DNA from: an uncultured Alphaproteobacteria bacterium
GTDB taxonomy: Bacteria; Pseudomonadota; Alphaproteobacteria; SP197
Length of the DNA: 64,000 bases
Assembly (NCBI GenBank): GCA_938048755.1
Contig: CALIUG010000107.1
Coordinates: 3,994 to 67,993 of the forward strand
Direction of reading: 5' to 3'
A program made the translations under genes and the position numbers. Position 1 is the stretch's first letter. Every line of letters begins with the position of its first letter. The notes under the pieces were generated by a model that worked only from the letters and a program-made list of their open reading frames with translations, ran no database searches and was not told the origin of the DNA. Positions 399-8,033 of this stretch are shown here, piece by piece.

Positions 399-1640
399 AT
401 GACAACGCTTCTCCGCACCCTGGTGATTGCGGCTCTTGCAGCGGCACCGGCTCACGCGCAGACCAGTCCCAATGCGCCCAACGAGCCGGTCGGCCAGCAC
501 TACCTGATCATCCAGGATGATCTGCCTGCGCCCTATGCGACCGAGAGCGTCAGCAATAGCGGCGACCTCCATCGGATCCCCGATCCGCCGGTTCTGAACC
601 TGCCCAGGGGCTTCACGGTCAACCTGTTTGCCTCTGGTTTTGATCATGCGCGCTGGCTTGCCACGGCCCCCAACGGCGACATCTTCATGGCCGAATCCCG
701 CGAAGGACACATCATGGTCCTGCGTGACGCCGACGGGGATGGTGTTGCTGAAACACAATCGGTCTATTGGTCGCGCATGAACCTTCCCACGGGCATGGTG
801 TTTCGGGACGACGGATTCTATGTCGCCGATACCGAGGCAGTCTGGCGTTTTGATTATGAGGAGGGTGACCTCGAATCAGACCGGGCACCGCTCAGAATGT
901 CCGTCACGGATGCCCTGGGCGGATCACGGGGGCATTGGACTCGCACGCTCGCCTTCGCGCCCGATGGCGATGACTTCTACGTCGCCGTGGGATCACGCGA
1001 CAACGAATCCATCGAGAGCGAACCGCGCGCGACAATCCAGGTTTTCGAGGATGGCGCCAGCACACCACGGACCTTCGCATCGGGTCTGCGCAACGCCGTG
1101 GGCATGGCCTTCCATCCCGCCACCGGTGAGCTCTACACGGTCGTTAACGAACGCGACGGTTATGGAGACGACCTTGTGCCTGACTACTGCACGCGCGTGC
1201 GCGATGGCGCGTTCTACGGCTGGCCTTATGCCTATTCAGGAACCAACCCCTCGCCTGATTACGGTGACCGTGCGCCCGAGCTGGTCGCGCAATCCCTGGA
1301 ACCCGATGTCATGTTCCAGTCCCATTCCGCGCCACTGGGGCTGGTCTTTTATGACGGCACGATGTTCCCGGCGGACTATCAGGGGGATGCCCTGGTCAGC
1401 CTGCATGGTTCCTGGAATCGCTCTGTCCCGGCCGGCTACAAGATCGTGCGCGTCCGGTTCGAGGACGGAAGGCCGGTTGGCGGCTACGAGAACTTTGCCA
1501 CGGGGTTCTGGTTCGCCGGTGACAAGGAGGCAGAACTTTACGGCCGTCCGGTCGGTATGACGGTCGCGGCAGATGGAGCCCTGCTCATTGCCGATGACGG
1601 GGCCGATGTCATCTGGCGTATTGCCTATGAGGAACCATGA
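399..1640 (+). CDS. PQQ-dependent soluble sugar (glucose/sorbosone) dehydrogenase family protein with N-terminal signal peptide
   Basis: 413 aa. N-terminus MTTLLRTLVIAALAAAPAHAQ is signal-peptide-like. Body resembles the GSDH/YliI beta-propeller family (repeated DGxxYV / NAVGMAFHP / GLVFYDG segments). It overlaps the NUDIX gene by ATGA. Confidence 0.7.
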   Translation: MTTLLRTLVIAALAAAPAHAQTSPNAPNEPVGQHYLIIQDDLPAPYATESVSNSGDLHRIPDPPVLNLPRGFTVNLFASGFDHARWLATAPNGDIFMAESREGHIMVLRDADGDGVAETQSVYWSRMNLPTGMVFRDDGFYVADTEAVWRFDYEEGDLESDRAPLRMSVTDALGGSRGHWTRTLAFAPDGDDFYVAVGSRDNESIESEPRATIQVFEDGASTPRTFASGLRNAVGMAFHPATGELYTVVNERDGYGDDLVPDYCTRVRDGAFYGWPYAYSGTNPSPDYGDRAPELVAQSLEPDVMFQSHSAPLGLVFYDGTMFPADYQGDALVSLHGSWNRSVPAGYKIVRVRFEDGRPVGGYENFATGFWFAGDKEAELYGRPVGMTVAADGALLIADDGADVIWRIAYEEP

Positions 1641-2191
1641 GCAACGAAACGGCACAGGGACCGGTCCACCCGCGCATCCCCGAGGGCGACAACCGCGAGC
1701 GTCTGGTCTGCAACGATTGCGGCTTTGTCCTCTATTCCAACCCGAAGGTCATGGTGGGTTCCGTGGTGCATTGGGAGGAACGTGTCCTGCTGTGCCGGCG
1801 CGAGATCGAACCACGCGCCGGTTTCTGGACCCTGCCGGCAGGCTTCATGGAGAACGGCGAAACCACCGAACAGGGCGCGTTGCGCGAGGCACGCGAGGAA
1901 ACCGGTGCCGACATTGCGCTTGACCATGTTCTGGCGGTCTACAACATCCCGCGTATCAGCCAGGTCCAGGTAATCTATGCCGGACGGTTGCTGTCACCCG
2001 ACGTGCATGCCGGTGACGAAACGCTGGAGGTCGGGTTGTTCACCTGGGACGCCATCCCCTGGGACGATCTGGCGTTTCCCTCGGTGCGCTGGGCGCTCGA
2101 ACATTGGCGCGAAGCCAGGCAAACCGGCGATCAGACCGCCCGTTCCAACCCATCTGGCGAAACGGGTGATTATCGTCACTTGAAGTCGTGA
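1637..2191 (+). CDS. NUDIX hydrolase with N-terminal zinc-ribbon
   Basis: Nudix box GFMENGETTEQGALREAREETG matches GX5EX7REUXEEXGU. N-terminal CNDCGF suggests a Zn ribbon. 4-nt ATGA overlap with the upstream gene. Confidence 0.85.
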   Translation: MSNETAQGPVHPRIPEGDNRERLVCNDCGFVLYSNPKVMVGSVVHWEERVLLCRREIEPRAGFWTLPAGFMENGETTEQGALREAREETGADIALDHVLAVYNIPRISQVQVIYAGRLLSPDVHAGDETLEVGLFTWDAIPWDDLAFPSVRWALEHWREARQTGDQTARSNPSGETGDYRHLKS

Positions 2192-2231
2192 TTACGTTCA
2201 TCGTTTCAGAAGGGAACGCAATGCCGCGTTG

Positions 2232-2256
2232 GTCGTTATCTAACCAAGATAACGAC
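2232..2256. promoter_or_regulatory. Perfect 10-bp inverted repeat GTCGTTATCT-aacca-AGATAACGAC immediately upstream of small ORF 2270
   Basis: Palindrome seen directly in the sequence, 14 nt upstream of the ATG at 2270. Candidate operator or RNA hairpin. Confidence 0.3.
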
Positions 2257-2269
2257 AATAAGGCCAAGA

Positions 2270-2545
2270 ATGAGCGACTTACATGCCGAAACGGCCCTCT
2301 GGATTGATGGTCTACGCCAGCGTGCCGACAAGGCGGAACAGCGCCTTGCCACCACCGATTCATTCCGTGACCAACGCAGGGATGCCGACGAACGTCTGGC
2401 CCGGTTCCGCACAGGTCTCGACCTGATGGGCAGCGACAAGAAGGACGCCACGCCTGAAGAGCGCACAACGCTGGAGACCATGGCCGACGATCTTGATGAA
2501 GCTGTCGAGAGCTTCCTCGTCAAGCTCAAGAACGCTGCAGAGTAG
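2270..2545 (+). CDS. Small hypothetical protein (91 aa)
   Basis: ORF with genome-typical high GC3 codon usage and AAGG upstream. No recognisable family. The antisense ORF 2236..2574 is Ser/Ala low-complexity and was rejected. Confidence 0.4.
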   Translation: MSDLHAETALWIDGLRQRADKAEQRLATTDSFRDQRRDADERLARFRTGLDLMGSDKKDATPEERTTLETMADDLDEAVESFLVKLKNAAE

Positions 2546-2548
2546 GGT

Positions 2549-3178
2549 TCAGCCGACCTTGTCGATGCTGTCAACGATATGGGCGACGATGCCGTATTCC
2601 TTGGCTTCTTCAGGGCCCATCCAGTAGTTCCGATCGGTGTCCTTGGCGACCCGCTCGACCGGCTGGCCCGTTTCCTCGGCGATGATCTGGTTCAACCGGT
2701 CACGCATCTTGAGGATTTCCCTGGCCTCGATATCGATCTCGGTCGCCTTGCCGCCGACGCCACCCATGGGCTGATGCAGCAGGAAGCGCGTGTTGGGCGT
2801 GCAGTAGCGGTTTTCCTTGTCCGCAGAGAGATAGATGTGCGCACCCGCGCTGGCGACCCAGCCGGTGCCGATCACCTTCACCGGTGCGGCAACAAACCGG
2901 ATCATGTCGTGGATGGCATCGCCGGACTCCACATGGCCACCGGGTGAACTGATCACCAGACGGATGGGATCGTGGTTCTCTTCGCTCATGGCGATCAGCT
3001 GGGCGCAGGTTTCGCGCGCGGCCTTTTCGTTGATCTCGCCAAACAGCAGGATCGTGCGCGAATCGAACAGGATCTTCATGACTGCGCGGTTTTTCTCGTC
3101 CTTCTTGGACTTCGCGTCGTCCTTTTCGTCCTTGTCGTCGTCATCGTCGGCGACATAACGCGCATCGAAATCGATCAT
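2549..3178 (-). CDS. ClpP-family serine peptidase paralog (S14) with atypical Asp/Lys-rich N-terminal extension
   Basis: VISSPGGHVESG, GWVASAGAHI (Ser nucleophile), LLHQPMGG (His) and DTDRNYWMGPEEAKEYGIV (Asp) give a full ClpP fold and triad. The canonical ClpP N-terminal axial-loop region is replaced by MIDFDARYVADDDDDKDEKDDAKSKKDEKN. The start could alternatively be the Met at ~3079. Confidence 0.75.
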   Translation of the reverse strand: MIDFDARYVADDDDDKDEKDDAKSKKDEKNRAVMKILFDSRTILLFGEINEKAARETCAQLIAMSEENHDPIRLVISSPGGHVESGDAIHDMIRFVAAPVKVIGTGWVASAGAHIYLSADKENRYCTPNTRFLLHQPMGGVGGKATEIDIEAREILKMRDRLNQIIAEETGQPVERVAKDTDRNYWMGPEEAKEYGIVAHIVDSIDKVG

Positions 3179-3249
3179 GATGGTGTCCGTGATTGGGTCT
3201 GAAACGTCGGGGCCTCTGACATAAGAGCCGGTTGCCCCATTTGCAAGCG

Positions 3250-3717
3250 TCAGGGCGTGGTGCCAGGCGTTTCGGGCAGGGAAACGCCGATCATGGCATC
3301 GCGGCTGACCTGTGCTGCCAGGGCTTCCTCGCTCCAGCCCTGCGTGCCTTCCGGGCGCATGGGCAGAACCATGTAGCGCATGTCGGCGGTGGAATCGTGC
3401 ACGCGGATCTCCGTGGTTTCGGGCAGCTCGGTGCCGAACTCGGCCAGAACGGCGCGGGGCTCGACCACCACGCGCGCACGATAGGCCGGGTCAACCCAGG
3501 CGCGCGCCACCATCTTTGCCCCTCCGGCAGGCGAGCGTGCATCCATGCGTTCGATGGTGCGCCGTTCCTCGTCAGCCGTGTAGATGCCCTTCTCGATCAG
3601 TAGCTCGCGCAGGGCACGCACCAGCAGCATGTGTTCGCTGGGCGGGCCTGCATCATCATCGGGCTGGAACGGGTGGGGGTGGTCATGATCGTGGCCGTGC
3701 TTGTGGTCAGAGCTCAT
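3250..3717 (-). CDS. Nitrile hydratase alpha-subunit-like protein, degenerate (no cysteines; metal-centre segment deleted; His-rich N-terminus)
   Basis: It aligns to both flanks of NHase alpha. The N-side [17 protein letters not shown]...[20 protein letters not shown] matches the 'LIExGxxT...GAKVVAKAWxDPEY' region. The C-side [60 protein letters not shown] matches the 'REPRxLLKEFGxxxPxxxEIxVWDSSSExRYxVLPxRPAGTDGWSEEEL..RDSMIGV' region. The ~45 aa between them (VCTLCSC metal site) is absent in-frame and the protein has 0 Cys. N-terminus is [17 protein letters not shown]. Confidence 0.7.
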
Positions 3718-4004
3718 TGCGCCGCCTCCAGCCAGTGTTCGTAGAGTTCGACCTCGATGGTGTCATCGGGCGTTTCGGCGCGTTCCGACCACAGGTGCTC
3801 CATGGTGAAACGCACACGATAGAGCGGCTGTTCCGGTTTGCCGTCGCCGTGATGGGCCAGGGTTTCGGGGTTGCCGAATACGCCGCACAGACGCTCGACC
3901 ACACCACACCGCCCTTTCACATAAGTCGGCACGCGATGGTGGTGGCGGGGAAACCGTTCTGCGACGATCACACGGTCGCCGGGACTGAACTTTACATCGC
4001 TCAT
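3714..4004 (-). CDS. Nitrile hydratase beta-subunit C-terminal (SH3-like) domain protein
   Basis: [68 protein letters not shown] matches the NHase beta C-terminal half 'KFKxGDxVRxxxxxPxGHxRxxRYVRGKTGTVVxHHGAxIYPD...EHLYTVRFTAQELW'. It has ATGA overlaps with both neighbours. Confidence 0.7.
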
Positions 4005-4321
4005 GGCGCGGCCTTGCGCAGTGCGGCAATCCGAGTGGCGATCTCGTCTTCGCTCACCACGCCTTTTTCCACCACGATCATGCGGATCGATTCGATCCAG
4101 CGCTCGTAATAGCCCAGCTTCTCATAGGCGTCCGGGCCCAGGGTCTCGATGCCCCGGCGCAGTTCGTCGACCCGCATGAGACCACGCTTCTCGTCCGAGA
4201 GCAGGGTCAGCATGGCATCCACCTGCTTTTCCCAATGGGCGGGGTTGTGTTCGGTCTGATCAACTGGTCCGGCCTCAAGGCCAGCCAGGTCGTGGTATCC
4301 GCGATGATGGTCGTTGTTCAT
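4001..4321 (-). CDS. Nitrile hydratase beta-subunit N-terminal domain protein
   Basis: MNNDHHRGYHDLAGLEAGPVDQTEHNPAHWEKQVDAMLTLL...LGPDAYEKLGYYERWIESI matches the NHase beta N-terminus 'MNGVHDxGGxxGxGPxxxxxxEPVFxxxWExxxFAM...MxPAEYLxxxYYExWL'. The split-beta arrangement is the one known from toyocamycin NHase (ToyK/ToyL) and thiocyanate hydrolase. Confidence 0.7.
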   Translation of the reverse strand: MNNDHHRGYHDLAGLEAGPVDQTEHNPAHWEKQVDAMLTLLSDEKRGLMRVDELRRGIETLGPDAYEKLGYYERWIESIRMIVVEKGVVSEDEIATRIAALRKAAP

Positions 4322-4353
4322 GGCGCGATGATGGAACGCGGTTGCGTTCGAGT

Positions 4354-5277
4354 CTAGGAGAGCCCCATCAGGGAACGCGCAAACTCATCAGCCTTGAAGG
4401 GGCGCAGGTCTTCTGCACTTTCGCCCACGCCGATGGCATGGATCGGCAGGCCGAACTTGTCAGCAAGGCCCACGATCACGCCGCCGCGCGCTGAACCGTC
4501 CAGCTTGGTCACGACCAGCCCGGTCACGTCGCACATGGCCTGAAAGGCCTCGACCTGTGCATGTGCGTTCTGGCCGGTGGTGGCGTCCAGCACCAGGATG
4601 CGGTCATGGGGTGCATCAGGATCCAGCTTGGCAAGGACGCGCAGGACCTTCTGGAGCTCGGCCATCAGGTTGTCTTTGTTGTGCAGACGCCCGGCGGTGT
4701 CGATCAGCAGCAGGTCTGCGCCCTCGGCCCGCGCGGTTTCCAGCGCGCCGTAAGCCAGGCCCGCGGCATCGGCACCCTGCTTGCCAGCGACAACTGTGCA
4801 ACCGGTGCGCTGACCCCAGATCTGGAGTTGTTCGATGGCCGCAGCGCGGAACGTGTCGCCTGCTGCCAGCACGACCTTGAGCCCGGCATCACTATGGAGT
4901 TTGGCCAGCTTGCCGATCGTGGTGGTCTTGCCCGTGCCGTTCACGCCCATCATCAGCACGACATGAGGACGGTGGGACCGGTCGATCTCCAGGGGCTTTG
5001 CGAGCGGCCCCAGAATCTCCGCCACGCTTTCGGCCAGATCCGCGCGCACTTCCTCGTCGGTGACTTCCTTGTCGAAACGCTTGCGCGAAAGATCAGCGGT
5101 CAGTCTGGCAGCGGTTGTGACGCCCAGATCACCGGCGATGAGCGCTTCCTCGAGTTCCTCGAGTGCGTCGTCATCCAGCTTGCGCTTGGTGAAGATCGAG
5201 CCGATGGATTCGGTCAGGCGTCCCGACGACCGCGACAGGCCCGAACGCATCCGGGAGAACCAGCCACCCTCCGACAT
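4354..5277 (-). CDS. ftsY: Signal recognition particle receptor FtsY
   Basis: SRP GTPase motifs [41 protein letters not shown], with an acidic N-terminal A domain. Confidence 0.9.
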
Positions 5278-6515
5278 CAGGCTGCCTCGGCCAGCAGGGT
5301 CGTGCCGTCGCTCGACGTGATCGCCAGATCGGCCAGGCTTCCTGCCGGCAGCGTGCCGGGCGTCGTCACCGGCGCGAAGTGTTCGCTGCGGCCCCGCCCC
5401 TCGGCCTCCACCAGGACCTGTGCCGTGGTTCCGACGCGATCAGCCAGGAACCGTGCAACGGCCTCGTCACCGGCCTGACGCAACCGCTGGGCGCGTTCCT
5501 TGCGCAGGGGCTTCTCCACGGCAGGCATGCGCGCAGCCGGAGTTCCCGGACGCTCGGAATAGGGAAAGACGTGGAGCCAGGTCAGCCCGCAATCGGCGAC
5601 GTGCTGCAGGGTGTTCTCGAACATGACGTCGGATTCGGTCGGGAAGCCGGCGATCAGGTCCGCGCCGAACACGGTGTCGGGGCGCAGGCGGCGCATCAGG
5701 TCACAAAACGCGATCGCCTGTTCGGGTGTGTGGCGGCGTTTCATGCGCTTGAGCACCATGGCATCGCCCGCCTGCAGGGAAAGATGCAGATGCGGCATCA
5801 GCCGCTCTTCCTCGGCAAAGGCGCGGTAGAGGCTTTCGTCGGCCTCGGCGATGTCGAGGCTCGTGATCCGCAGGCGCGGCAGGTCCGGCACCAGCTTCAG
5901 GATGCGGCGTGCAAGATCACCCAATGTCGGCTTGCCCGGAAGGTCATCACCCCAGGACGTGATGTCGACCCCGGTCAAGACGACTTCGCGATAGCCGGCT
6001 TCGACCAGTCCTGCGATCTCGCGCACCACTTCACCGGCCGGCACGCTGCGGCTGGGGCCACGGCCATAGGGAATGATGCAGAAGGTGCAGCGGTGATCAC
6101 AGCCGTTCTGGACCTGCACGAAGGCACGGACGCGATCCTCGAATCCCGCCAGCATGTGCGACGCGGTTTCGCGCACGTCGGCAATGTCGTTGACGCTGAC
6201 CCTCTCCGGCGCCCTGGCCTGCCATGTCCCGGCTTCCAGCTTTTCAACATTGCCAACGACGCGATCCAGCTCGGGCATCTTCGCCCAGGTGTCGGGATCG
6301 ATCTGCACGGCACAACCGGTCGCCACGATGTTCGCTTCGGGATGTTCCCGTCGCGCACGGCGGATGGCCTGGCGCGCCTGGCGTTCGGCTTCGGCAGTGA
6401 CGGCGCAGGTGTTGATGACGATGGTATTGCCGGACTCGCTCGTGCCCAGATGGCCGCGAATCACTTCTGATTCGTATGCATTCAGGCGGCAGCCGAAGGT
6501 CAGGACATCGGACAT
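5277..6515 (-). CDS. mtaB: MiaB-like radical-SAM methylthiotransferase (MtaB type)
   Basis: N-terminal MTTase domain TFGCRLNAYESE and radical SAM CxxxCxxC (NGCDHRCTFCIIP). The dapF-mtaB-ftsY arrangement is conserved in alphaproteobacteria. Confidence 0.75.
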   Translation of the reverse strand: MSDVLTFGCRLNAYESEVIRGHLGTSESGNTIVINTCAVTAEAERQARQAIRRARREHPEANIVATGCAVQIDPDTWAKMPELDRVVGNVEKLEAGTWQARAPERVSVNDIADVRETASHMLAGFEDRVRAFVQVQNGCDHRCTFCIIPYGRGPSRSVPAGEVVREIAGLVEAGYREVVLTGVDITSWGDDLPGKPTLGDLARRILKLVPDLPRLRITSLDIAEADESLYRAFAEEERLMPHLHLSLQAGDAMVLKRMKRRHTPEQAIAFCDLMRRLRPDTVFGADLIAGFPTESDVMFENTLQHVADCGLTWLHVFPYSERPGTPAARMPAVEKPLRKERAQRLRQAGDEAVARFLADRVGTTAQVLVEAEGRGRSEHFAPVTTPGTLPAGSLADLAITSSDGTTLLAEAA

Positions 6516-6516
6516 T

Positions 6517-7338
6517 TCAGGCCACCAGTTCGGCTGCGAGGATGCCGTGATAGGAGAGGGCGGTGGGTCCGGCCATCAGCACATGACCGTCTTCGCGCCA
6601 TGTCATGTCGAGTTCGCCGCCGGGCAGGGCAACCGTGATGCTGCGTTCGGTCAGGCCTCGGCGCACACCGGCAACGACGACAGCACAGGCCGCCGAACCA
6701 CAAGCCAAAGTCGGCCCTGCGCTGCGTTCCCAGACACGCACCCGGATGCGCTGCGGAGTCTCGACCGTGCAGAAGCTGATGTTGGCGCGTTCGGGGAACA
6801 TCGGGTGGTGTTCCAGCGCGGAGCCTGTGTGCGCCAGATCGACGGCATCGCAATCGTCCACAAACAGAACGGCGTGAGGATTGCCCATGTTCACGCAAAC
6901 GGCGGCGGGAGCATCGGGTCCCAGGTCGACCTCTGCCGTATCGGTCTCTTTTGCGAGGGGGATGGCATCCCAGGTGAGCCGGGCTTCGCCCATGTCGACG
7001 CTGATACCATCCGGGGTTGCCTCGCTGGCCAGCAAACCTGCGACAGTTTCGACAACGATCCTGTCTCGGCCGGTCTCATCCATGACCAGACGTGCAACGC
7101 AACGCGTGGCATTGCCACAGGCCTGGGCGTGGCTGCCGTCCGGGTTCCAGATGCGCATGAACACATCGCCATGCTCGGAAGGTTCCATGCGGATGAGCTG
7201 GTCACAGCCCACGCCGGTATGGCGATCGGCAATCGCGCGGATCATGTCCGGCGACAGGTCGAGCGCACGCTCGCGGGCATCAACGATGACAAAATCGTTG
7301 CCCAGTCCGTGCATCTTGAGAAAGCTGACCGTATCCAT
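6517..7338 (-). CDS. dapF: Diaminopimelate epimerase
   Basis: Begins FLKMHGLGNDFVIVD. The two catalytic Cys regions GNATRC and ACGSAACA are present. Length 273 aa. Confidence 0.9.
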   Translation of the reverse strand: MDTVSFLKMHGLGNDFVIVDARERALDLSPDMIRAIADRHTGVGCDQLIRMEPSEHGDVFMRIWNPDGSHAQACGNATRCVARLVMDETGRDRIVVETVAGLLASEATPDGISVDMGEARLTWDAIPLAKETDTAEVDLGPDAPAAVCVNMGNPHAVLFVDDCDAVDLAHTGSALEHHPMFPERANISFCTVETPQRIRVRVWERSAGPTLACGSAACAVVVAGVRRGLTERSITVALPGGELDMTWREDGHVLMAGPTALSYHGILAAELVA

Positions 7339-7466
7339 GTCGCGCCTTATATGGCGCTCTCTTTCGGGCGTCCAATGGGTGGTTGCCGGTTTGACCGGGG
7401 CATGTTTTGGTCAGGCAACCGATTCTGGCGCACGGATGGCGCCGCATGCAGCCCAGAGGCTCTTTC

Positions 7467-7946
7467 ATGACCACGCTCAACGTCCTGCCCATTCTGGAAC
7501 GCCGACGCATTCAGGCTGAGGTCGTCAAGCCGATCTATGAAGCATTGAAAGCCGAATCCGGGGAGGAAACGGCAAAGCGGGTGATCGGTGCTGCCATCAT
7601 TGCCGCGGCGATCGAAGAAGGGCAGGAATTCGCTCGAAAACACGGTGAAAACGGTGGAATCGAAGGATTTCTCTCGTTCCAGCACCTGTGGGATGCCGAC
7701 GGTGCACTCGAAACCGAGGTCATCAAGGAATCCGGAAACGAGTACATCTACAAGGTCACGCGCTGCCGATACGCAGAAATGTATAAGGAAATGGGCGTGG
7801 GCGAGATCGGGTTTCAGCTATCCTGCAACCGGGACGGGACCTTTGTTGAAGGGTATGATCCCCGCATCCGGTTCAGGCGCACGCAAACCATCATGCAGGG
7901 CGCCAGCCACTGCGACTTTCACTATTCCATGACTGGAGACGATTGA
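7467..7946 (+). CDS. Putative L-2-amino-thiazoline-4-carboxylate hydrolase (ATC hydrolase) family protein
   Basis: ~160 aa with a Cys/His pattern (TRCRY...CNRDG...HCDFHY) reminiscent of PF14196. The start is ambiguous between 7446 and 7467; the track ORF begins at a TTG at 7407. Confidence 0.4.
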   Translation: MTTLNVLPILERRRIQAEVVKPIYEALKAESGEETAKRVIGAAIIAAAIEEGQEFARKHGENGGIEGFLSFQHLWDADGALETEVIKESGNEYIYKVTRCRYAEMYKEMGVGEIGFQLSCNRDGTFVEGYDPRIRFRRTQTIMQGASHCDFHYSMTGDD

Positions 7947-8033
7947 TGACAGCAAGGTTCCTTTCTCTGGTGTCTGCTGACGGCCTGCAACAGCGGTGAC
8001 AGCTTTCTGGAATGGGATGAGGAAACTGCGGCC

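Follow-up and report, generated by a model that had tools for sequence, protein, structure and literature searches.

In nitrile hydratases (NHases), CTLCSCY is the cobalt-binding motif and CSLCSCT is the iron motif (PMC2667541), and the equivalent peptide of the Pseudomonas putida enzyme holds all of the metal ligands (PMC4709657). Toyocamycin NHase, ToyJKL, is an (alpha-beta-gamma)2 enzyme with subunits of 21.2, 10, and 11.4 kDa (PMC8574189). Among ClpP proteins, Listeria ClpP1 (LmClpP1) has an impaired Ser98/His123/Asn172 triad, cannot bind AAA+ partners, and requires the ClpP1/P2 heterocomplex for activity (PMC9257651); Pseudomonas ClpP2 (PaClpP2) on its own assembles into heptamers that lack activity, and it is active as part of ClpP1(7)P2(7) (PMC13056064). 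Here we analyze a locus in which relatives of both kinds of protein are encoded side by side. It lies in 64,000 nucleotides (nt) of contig CALIUG010000107.1 (GenBank assembly GCA_938048755.1) from an uncultured alphaproteobacterium, and this whole stretch is referred to as the window. The locus contains genes for two beta-type NHase polypeptides (beta-N and beta-C), for an NHase alpha subunit from which the metal-binding cysteine motif (the claw) is missing, and for a ClpP-like protein. A preliminary description, made from the sequence without database searches, had taken the cluster for a noncatalytic NHase complex. After comparison with near-identical sequences, we conclude that the locus is very probably an ordinary split-beta, cobalt-type NHase operon in which the alpha gene carries a recent, strain-level, in-frame loss-of-function deletion, that is, a known enzyme type and not a new family.

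Near-identical intact alleles of the alpha gene

The window alpha protein (P0001) was compared with relatives drawn from 5.8 billion proteins, with 8,000 NHase alpha relatives scored and the best 120 listed. Among these best 120 of 8,000, P0001 is the sole protein of 155 amino acids (aa) and the sole gapped sequence, the others having 206 to 237 aa. It forms a singleton cluster and is named "hypothetical protein." Its relative P0002 is 97% identical outside the gap and has VCTLCSCY in place. A closer match, P0124 (217 aa), falls within the P0002 cluster at 90% identity. It agrees with the window alpha at all aligned residues (100% identity) and possesses the 62 residues that the window protein lacks, including VCTLCSCY; a lineage-specific Met in LPMRPEG is common to both. 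Other short members of the cluster (149 to 188 aa) were considered as possible internal deletions and rejected, as all are N-terminal truncations arising from start-site calls or contig ends.

P0124 is encoded on L086, a 134-kb metagenome scaffold with the same gene order as the window (ffh, dapF, a radical S-adenosylmethionine [SAM] gene, ftsY, beta-N, beta-C, alpha, ClpP, a 91-aa open reading frame [ORF], and NUDIX). Over 10,257 nt, the two sequences are 99.69% identical. Their alpha genes differ by one single-nucleotide polymorphism (nt 453) and a 186-nt indel and by nothing else. In the intact genes of L086 and of L004, a 95%-identical relative of the window, the 186-nt segment is bounded by an exact 9-bp repeat, GGCCTATCG, at alpha-gene nt 231 to 239 and 417 to 425. 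A single indel bounded by a direct repeat is the pattern that replication slippage or microhomology-mediated deletion classically leaves in a sequence.

The same deletion is present in three more contigs (L001 to L003), assembled separately from three different JGI samples. Their identity to the window is 99.8 to 99.9%, and at nt 453 they have the same base as L086. Judged from these alignments, the deletion is a strain-level polymorphism within one population.

An assembly or sequencing artefact, in which the organism has the 186-nt segment but the assembler collapsed it, would be favored by the metagenomic source, by the direct repeat that bounds the segment, and by the internal repeat of the alpha protein. 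The exact repeat is only 9 bp, however, far below assembler k-mer sizes, and its flanks are otherwise dissimilar; moreover, the window shares its junction with three contigs, each from a different sample and an independent assembly. We therefore consider an artefact highly improbable: because the repeat is too short for assembler collapse and the junction recurs in three contigs, the deletion is taken to be real. An exact scan of the metagenome_contigs collection for the deletion junction gave 0 matches; this collection evidently does not include L001 to L003, which carry the junction, so the zero count is uninformative.

Organization of the locus

The features of the locus are as follows.

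4354-5277, minus strand: ftsY, signal recognition particle receptor (TIGR00064, 321 bits versus a cutoff of 260.7), immediately upstream of beta-N
4001-4321, minus strand: NHase beta-N, 106 aa, in an ORF of its own (PF21006 NHase_beta_N, 6.4e-18; TIGR03888 positions 2-98)
3714-4004, minus strand: NHase beta-C, the SH3-like half, 96 aa (PF02211 NHase_beta_C, 1.5e-23; TIGR03888 positions 137-226)
3250-3717, minus strand: cobalt-type NHase alpha, shortened from 217 to 155 aa by an in-frame deletion of 186 nt (PF02979)
3479-3487, minus strand: deletion junction, the lone remaining copy of the 9-bp direct repeat GGCCTATCG (DNA alignments to L004 and L086)
2549-3178, minus strand: atypical ClpP paralog, 209 aa, Ser110-His135-Asn184, with a charged N-terminal extension (CLP_protease, 3.7e-62; NF009205)

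The beta subunit genes adjoin alpha on its upstream side, in the order beta then alpha, and ftsY is separated from beta-N by 32 nt. As the preliminary description had reported, three minus-strand ORFs downstream of ftsY are coupled by ATGA start/stop overlaps, at 4001-4004 (beta-N/beta-C) and 3714-3717 (beta-C/alpha), and the ClpP-like gene follows alpha after a gap of 71 nt. These coordinates were confirmed, and the Pfam search agrees with the earlier domain assignments for beta-N, beta-C, alpha, and ClpP. The other neighbors in gene order are a MiaB/RimO-like radical SAM gene and dapF.

No second NHase or ClpP copy was found within the 64-kb window, and no separate NHase activator or accessory gene adjoins the operon there. 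Assignment of beta-N as an NHase accessory protein was tried and rejected (TIGR03889, 18.5 bits versus a cutoff of 46; NHase_beta_N, 65 bits). A promoter and terminator scan of positions 2200-5600 returned nothing above shuffled expectation, which bears neither way on cotranscription with ftsY or ClpP.

A 91-aa ORF at 2270-2545 (plus strand), convergent with the ClpP-like gene, was also called in L001 and L086. It has no Pfam match, and its position is conserved. Divergence from L086, which is otherwise 99.7 to 99.9% identical, varies along the window. Positions 1-1500, which include part of a GSDH/TrAA12-like gene (399-1640, plus strand), are ∼7% divergent (102 differences in 1,500 nt), and positions 1501-7000 show about 8 differences. 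From this distribution, positions 1-1500 have the appearance of a recombination tract that ends sharply at about position 1500. A second cluster of differences lies at 7001-8000 (15 per 1 kb, compared with 0 to 3 per kb in the flanking stretches), around an ORF at 7407-7946 and the upstream region of dapF.

The missing segment and the internal repeat of NHase alpha

PF02979 (NHase_alpha) matches the window alpha in two stretches (9.5e-44; 149 bits versus a cutoff of 27.2), and the protein fails the NHase-alpha equivalog TIGR01323 (139.9 versus a cutoff of 249.85). P0002 passes the same equivalog model at 255.1. The window protein does not contain the claw pattern C-(T/S)-L-C-S-C and has zero cysteines, the metal-claw segment being gone in frame. 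The preliminary description had recognized both the in-frame loss and the absence of Cys, and alignment to the nearest relatives bears this out; its estimate of ∼45 missing residues needs revision, as the absent segment comprises exactly 62 residues (186 nt). We also agree that, with none of the three metal-ligand cysteines left, nitrile hydratase activity of the product is precluded. From the sequence, we infer that the deleted alpha would have lost metal binding, cobalt, and nitrile hydration.

Residues 74-115 of the window alpha align twice to 7qop_A, at ∼61-103 and at ∼125-165. NHase alpha thus has an internal repeat, of which the window alpha keeps one copy. The deleted unit is 34% identical to the following unit over 32 residues (E = 8e-4), and the predicted structure of an intact relative has a helix-helix-strand-strand arrangement twice. 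In that prediction, the first unit consists of helices 77-85 and 87-93 and strands 102-107 and 112-118, with the metal claw coming after it; the second consists of helices 140-147 and 149-155 and strands 165-171 and 175-180.

A simple mechanism may be proposed from this arrangement. Each GGCCTATCG repeat encodes Ala-Tyr-Arg, the motif with which one of the two units in the C-terminal domain of alpha opens. By slippage during replication, or by microhomology-mediated recombination, from one repeat to the other, the first unit would have been lost in full and the VCTLCSCY claw with it. The gene, whose product is without cobalt ligands, is most likely a fresh loss-of-function allele, and the other operon genes still look intact, probably because there has been too little time for decay.

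The internal repeat might also be read in the opposite direction, with a short, single-repeat, NHLP-like alpha as the ancestral form and the intact allele as the product of insertion or duplication. The alpha C-terminal domain is an internal duplication, and the NHLP model TIGR03793 matches residues 67-133 of the window alpha at 48.5 bits; however, this score is under the cutoff of 50.9, and no RiPP (ribosomally synthesized and posttranslationally modified peptide) context is present. Furthermore, all outgroups, near and far, are full length with the claw, and the short form is nested in a population of 99.7% identity in which the long form occurs as well. An ancestral short form is accordingly regarded as extremely unlikely.

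Related loci and the direction of change

When single genomes representing each species (GTDB) were scanned, 80 loci with a related alpha were obtained. The alpha matches in these species-representative loci are all full length, and 79 of the 80 contain C[TS]LCSC. The closest species representative, L014 (metagenome-assembled genome [MAG] A_MB180, contig_14087), has the claw segment despite many frameshifts. Because all 80 alphas are full length and the claw is present in L014, the short form is derived. L014 itself is usable only piecewise as an outgroup, as beta-N, beta-C, alpha, and ClpP are all frameshifted. These frameshifts most likely reflect long-read indel error rather than real pseudogenes, and the record is unreliable for gene integrity. 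In the 80th locus (L078:5001-5543, from the Deltaproteobacteria MAG OFTM60), the claw Leu is replaced by Gln, giving VCTQCSC, and beta is fused.

The split beta subunit is not rare. Among 76 related loci from reference genomes (L006 to L085), beta is divided into two ORFs upstream of alpha in 68 and fused in 8; the three-gene layout is thus the norm of the clade, and three-polypeptide NHases appear far commoner in genomes than the two characterized examples suggest. In L006 and L082, the order is beta-C, alpha, and beta-N-like, with the beta-N-like ORF downstream of alpha. Rather than a structural subunit, this ORF might encode a beta homolog of the accessory or activator type.

The His-rich N terminus of alpha (window 3673-3717), previously interpreted as a new acquisition, is common to intact, claw-bearing relatives in alignments A1 (P0002) and A3 (P0124). 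Built-in cobalt delivery by this tail is conceivable.

These comparisons bear directly on the idea that the cluster is an evolved noncatalytic scaffold. In this view, the His-rich tail would allow it to store metal or to act as a metal chaperone, or else it would serve the ClpP-like protease as an adaptor. The deletion is in frame, the three ORFs are still coupled and intact, the N-terminal arm and His-rich tail are retained, and the allele is present in several samples, all of which fit such a role. The preliminary description had itself named a lack of conservation or synteny in related genomes as evidence against this idea, and the Cys-less form is not conserved. It is a singleton in the protein database, confined to one 99.8 to 99.9% identical population, and an otherwise identical intact allele (P0124, on L086) exists in the same context. 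The His-rich tail is shared with the aligned intact enzymes, only the closest relatives have ClpP next to NHase, conservation of the ClpP paralog family does not depend on NHase, and the confidence of the predicted fold falls after the deletion. We consider a scaffold or adaptor very unlikely.

Selection and predicted structural effect

Relative to L004, the ratio of nonsynonymous to synonymous substitution rates (dN/dS) is 0.064 for the remaining codons of alpha, 0.044 for beta-C, 0.18 for beta-N, 0.017 for ftsY, and 0.088 for the ClpP-like gene, with a dS of about 0.2 to 0.3 for the three NHase genes. As most of this divergence is older than the deletion, these ratios cannot separate a recently dead gene from one still under selection. 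The beta-N protein is 92% identical to its L004 ortholog. When the eight differences were polarized with L014, three fell on the L004 branch, one fell on the window branch, and four were ambiguous; no excess of beta-N changes was seen in the window lineage, although eight differences provide low power. No second lesion was found in alpha, beta-N, or beta-C. This lack of decay in the sequences is consistent with a very recent deletion and does not alone prove continued function.

Structures of the intact and deleted alpha proteins were predicted as monomers by AlphaFold2 from alignments of equal depth (12 sequences each). The intact alpha gave a predicted local distance difference test score (pLDDT) of 73 and a predicted template modeling score (pTM) of 0.68. 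The corresponding values for the deleted alpha were 57 and 0.34, with the C-terminal half largely below a pLDDT of 50. In the predicted structure, the deletion halves the four-stranded sheet by removing two strands, and it also takes out two helices, the claw, and the helix after the claw. On the basis of these models, the deleted alpha has probably lost a stable C-terminal domain.

The ClpP-like gene

The ClpP-like protein passes the curated subfamily model NF009205 (260 bits versus a cutoff of 228). Its nearest PDB chains are chain A of 4jcq, 4ryf, and 6sfx (1e-67), which we take to be Listeria ClpP1, followed by 7m1l and 9ndj (2e-53), presumably Pseudomonas ClpP2. In the best-matching chain, Ser, His, and Asn are spaced as in the published triad of LmClpP1. 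The catalytic triad was mapped from E. coli ClpP (S97/H122/D171, verified by position) and falls on S110/H135/N184, with Asp171 replaced by Asn184. The intact Ser-His-Asp triad reported earlier is therefore not present; Ser-His-Asn is found in 120/120 of the closest homologs. Many of these proteins share the charged, acidic/lysine-rich N-terminal extension, which is of variable length, and Ser-His-Asn paralogs with such extensions make up a large conserved group in Alphaproteobacteria. One homolog (P0184, 322 aa) has a much longer extension.

By sequence, the gene is a conserved atypical ClpP paralog of the Listeria ClpP1/Pseudomonas ClpP2 type. By analogy with those proteins, its product would work only when mixed with canonical ClpP. 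Conservation of the family extends to hundreds of proteins independently of NHase, and adjacency to the NHase cluster is limited to L004, L014, and L086 plus two contigs of the window population, L001 and L002. In 0/79 of the other species-representative loci does a ClpP gene adjoin the NHase cluster; L072 has a 32%-identical ClpP match ∼4 kb away. The gene neighborhoods provide no evidence for a functional link between ClpP and NHase, the adjacency being one that happens in this lineage.

Alternative readings and implications

Several points weigh against a simple loss of function. The deletion is exactly in frame, and alpha, beta-N, and beta-C are free of any second lesion; as far as the sequence goes, the shortened protein could still be in use. 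The occurrence of the allele in several samples indicates that it is not strongly deleterious in that habitat. In addition, the spread of the allele is known from assembled contigs, and the structure predictions are of monomers and derive from a shallow, 12-sequence alignment.

The architecture of the deleted alpha, a beta-binding N-terminal arm followed by exactly one of the two repeat units, resembles that of an NHLP leader. If expressed and stable, the protein might still associate with beta-N and beta-C, either as a scaffold or as a dominant-negative subunit, in both cases without metal, and the deletion might also represent a one-step origin of an NHLP-like module. We consider this quite improbable; if true, it would provide a natural, one-step example of a claw-less NHLP-like module arising from an NHase alpha gene.

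Under the favored reading of a recent loss-of-function deletion, the locus represents at most an ongoing natural loss of NHase in an environmental alphaproteobacterial population. It also offers a clean example of slippage between short repeats, each coding for the beginning of one half of a domain that is internally duplicated. The case carries a caution, as what appeared to be an active-site-deleted homolog proved to be a strain-level allele once near-identical sequences were compared. Two by-products of the analysis are that split-beta cobalt-type NHases with His-rich alpha N termini are common and that Alphaproteobacteria have conserved ClpP paralogs that resemble Listeria ClpP1 in their Ser-His-Asn triad.

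Comparison with described systems

The ClpP-like protein resembles LmClpP1 and PaClpP2 in that these provide its best structure matches, in a triad spacing identical to that of LmClpP1, and in a noncanonical N terminus. It differs from both in its longer, acidic/lysine-rich N-terminal extension. LmClpP1 and PaClpP2 are inactive by themselves, fail to bind ClpX, and act in mixed ClpP complexes.

The NHLP leaders of RiPP pathways (TIGR03793; PDB entry 8tb1) share with the window alpha a single helix-helix-strand-strand unit and the lack of a claw, and the TIGR03793 match to this unit stays below the cutoff. In contrast to these leaders, the window alpha has a long N-terminal beta-binding arm (∼66 additional aa) and is encoded in an NHase operon, at a locus with no core peptide, maturase, or other RiPP context. 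The window alpha arose by a very recent deletion and not by descent from NHLP.

The gamma subunit of thiocyanate hydrolase (TIGR03887; PDB entry 2dd4) is homologous to the window alpha (PDB match, 2e-38), is likewise of the cobalt type, and is also accompanied by the equivalent of a split beta. However, the TIGR03887 cutoff of 291.45 is missed both by the window alpha (138.2) and by intact P0002 (225.1), which scores better as an NHase alpha than as a thiocyanate hydrolase gamma.

ToyJKL is likened to the locus by subunit layout and size and not by sequence. Both have three polypeptides with beta in two small subunits, and the ToyJKL masses resemble those of the intact form of the locus (217, 96, and 106 aa). 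The window context (ftsY and ClpP) differs, with no nucleoside-antibiotic genes, and since a split beta is common (68 of 76 loci), the layout does not imply a toyocamycin function.

Finally, the cobalt-type NHase alpha itself (TIGR01323 and PF02979; PDB entries 7qop, 3hht, and 1ire) belongs to the same family as the window protein, with E values of about 1e-40 to the solved structures. The window copy departs from it in being without 62 residues and all three Cys ligands; the likeness lies in the intact allele, which has the CTLCSCY claw, passes the equivalog model, and adjoins the beta genes. Classified by sequence, the locus is a three-gene, split-beta, cobalt-type NHase operon of a type widespread in Alphaproteobacteria and Betaproteobacteria.

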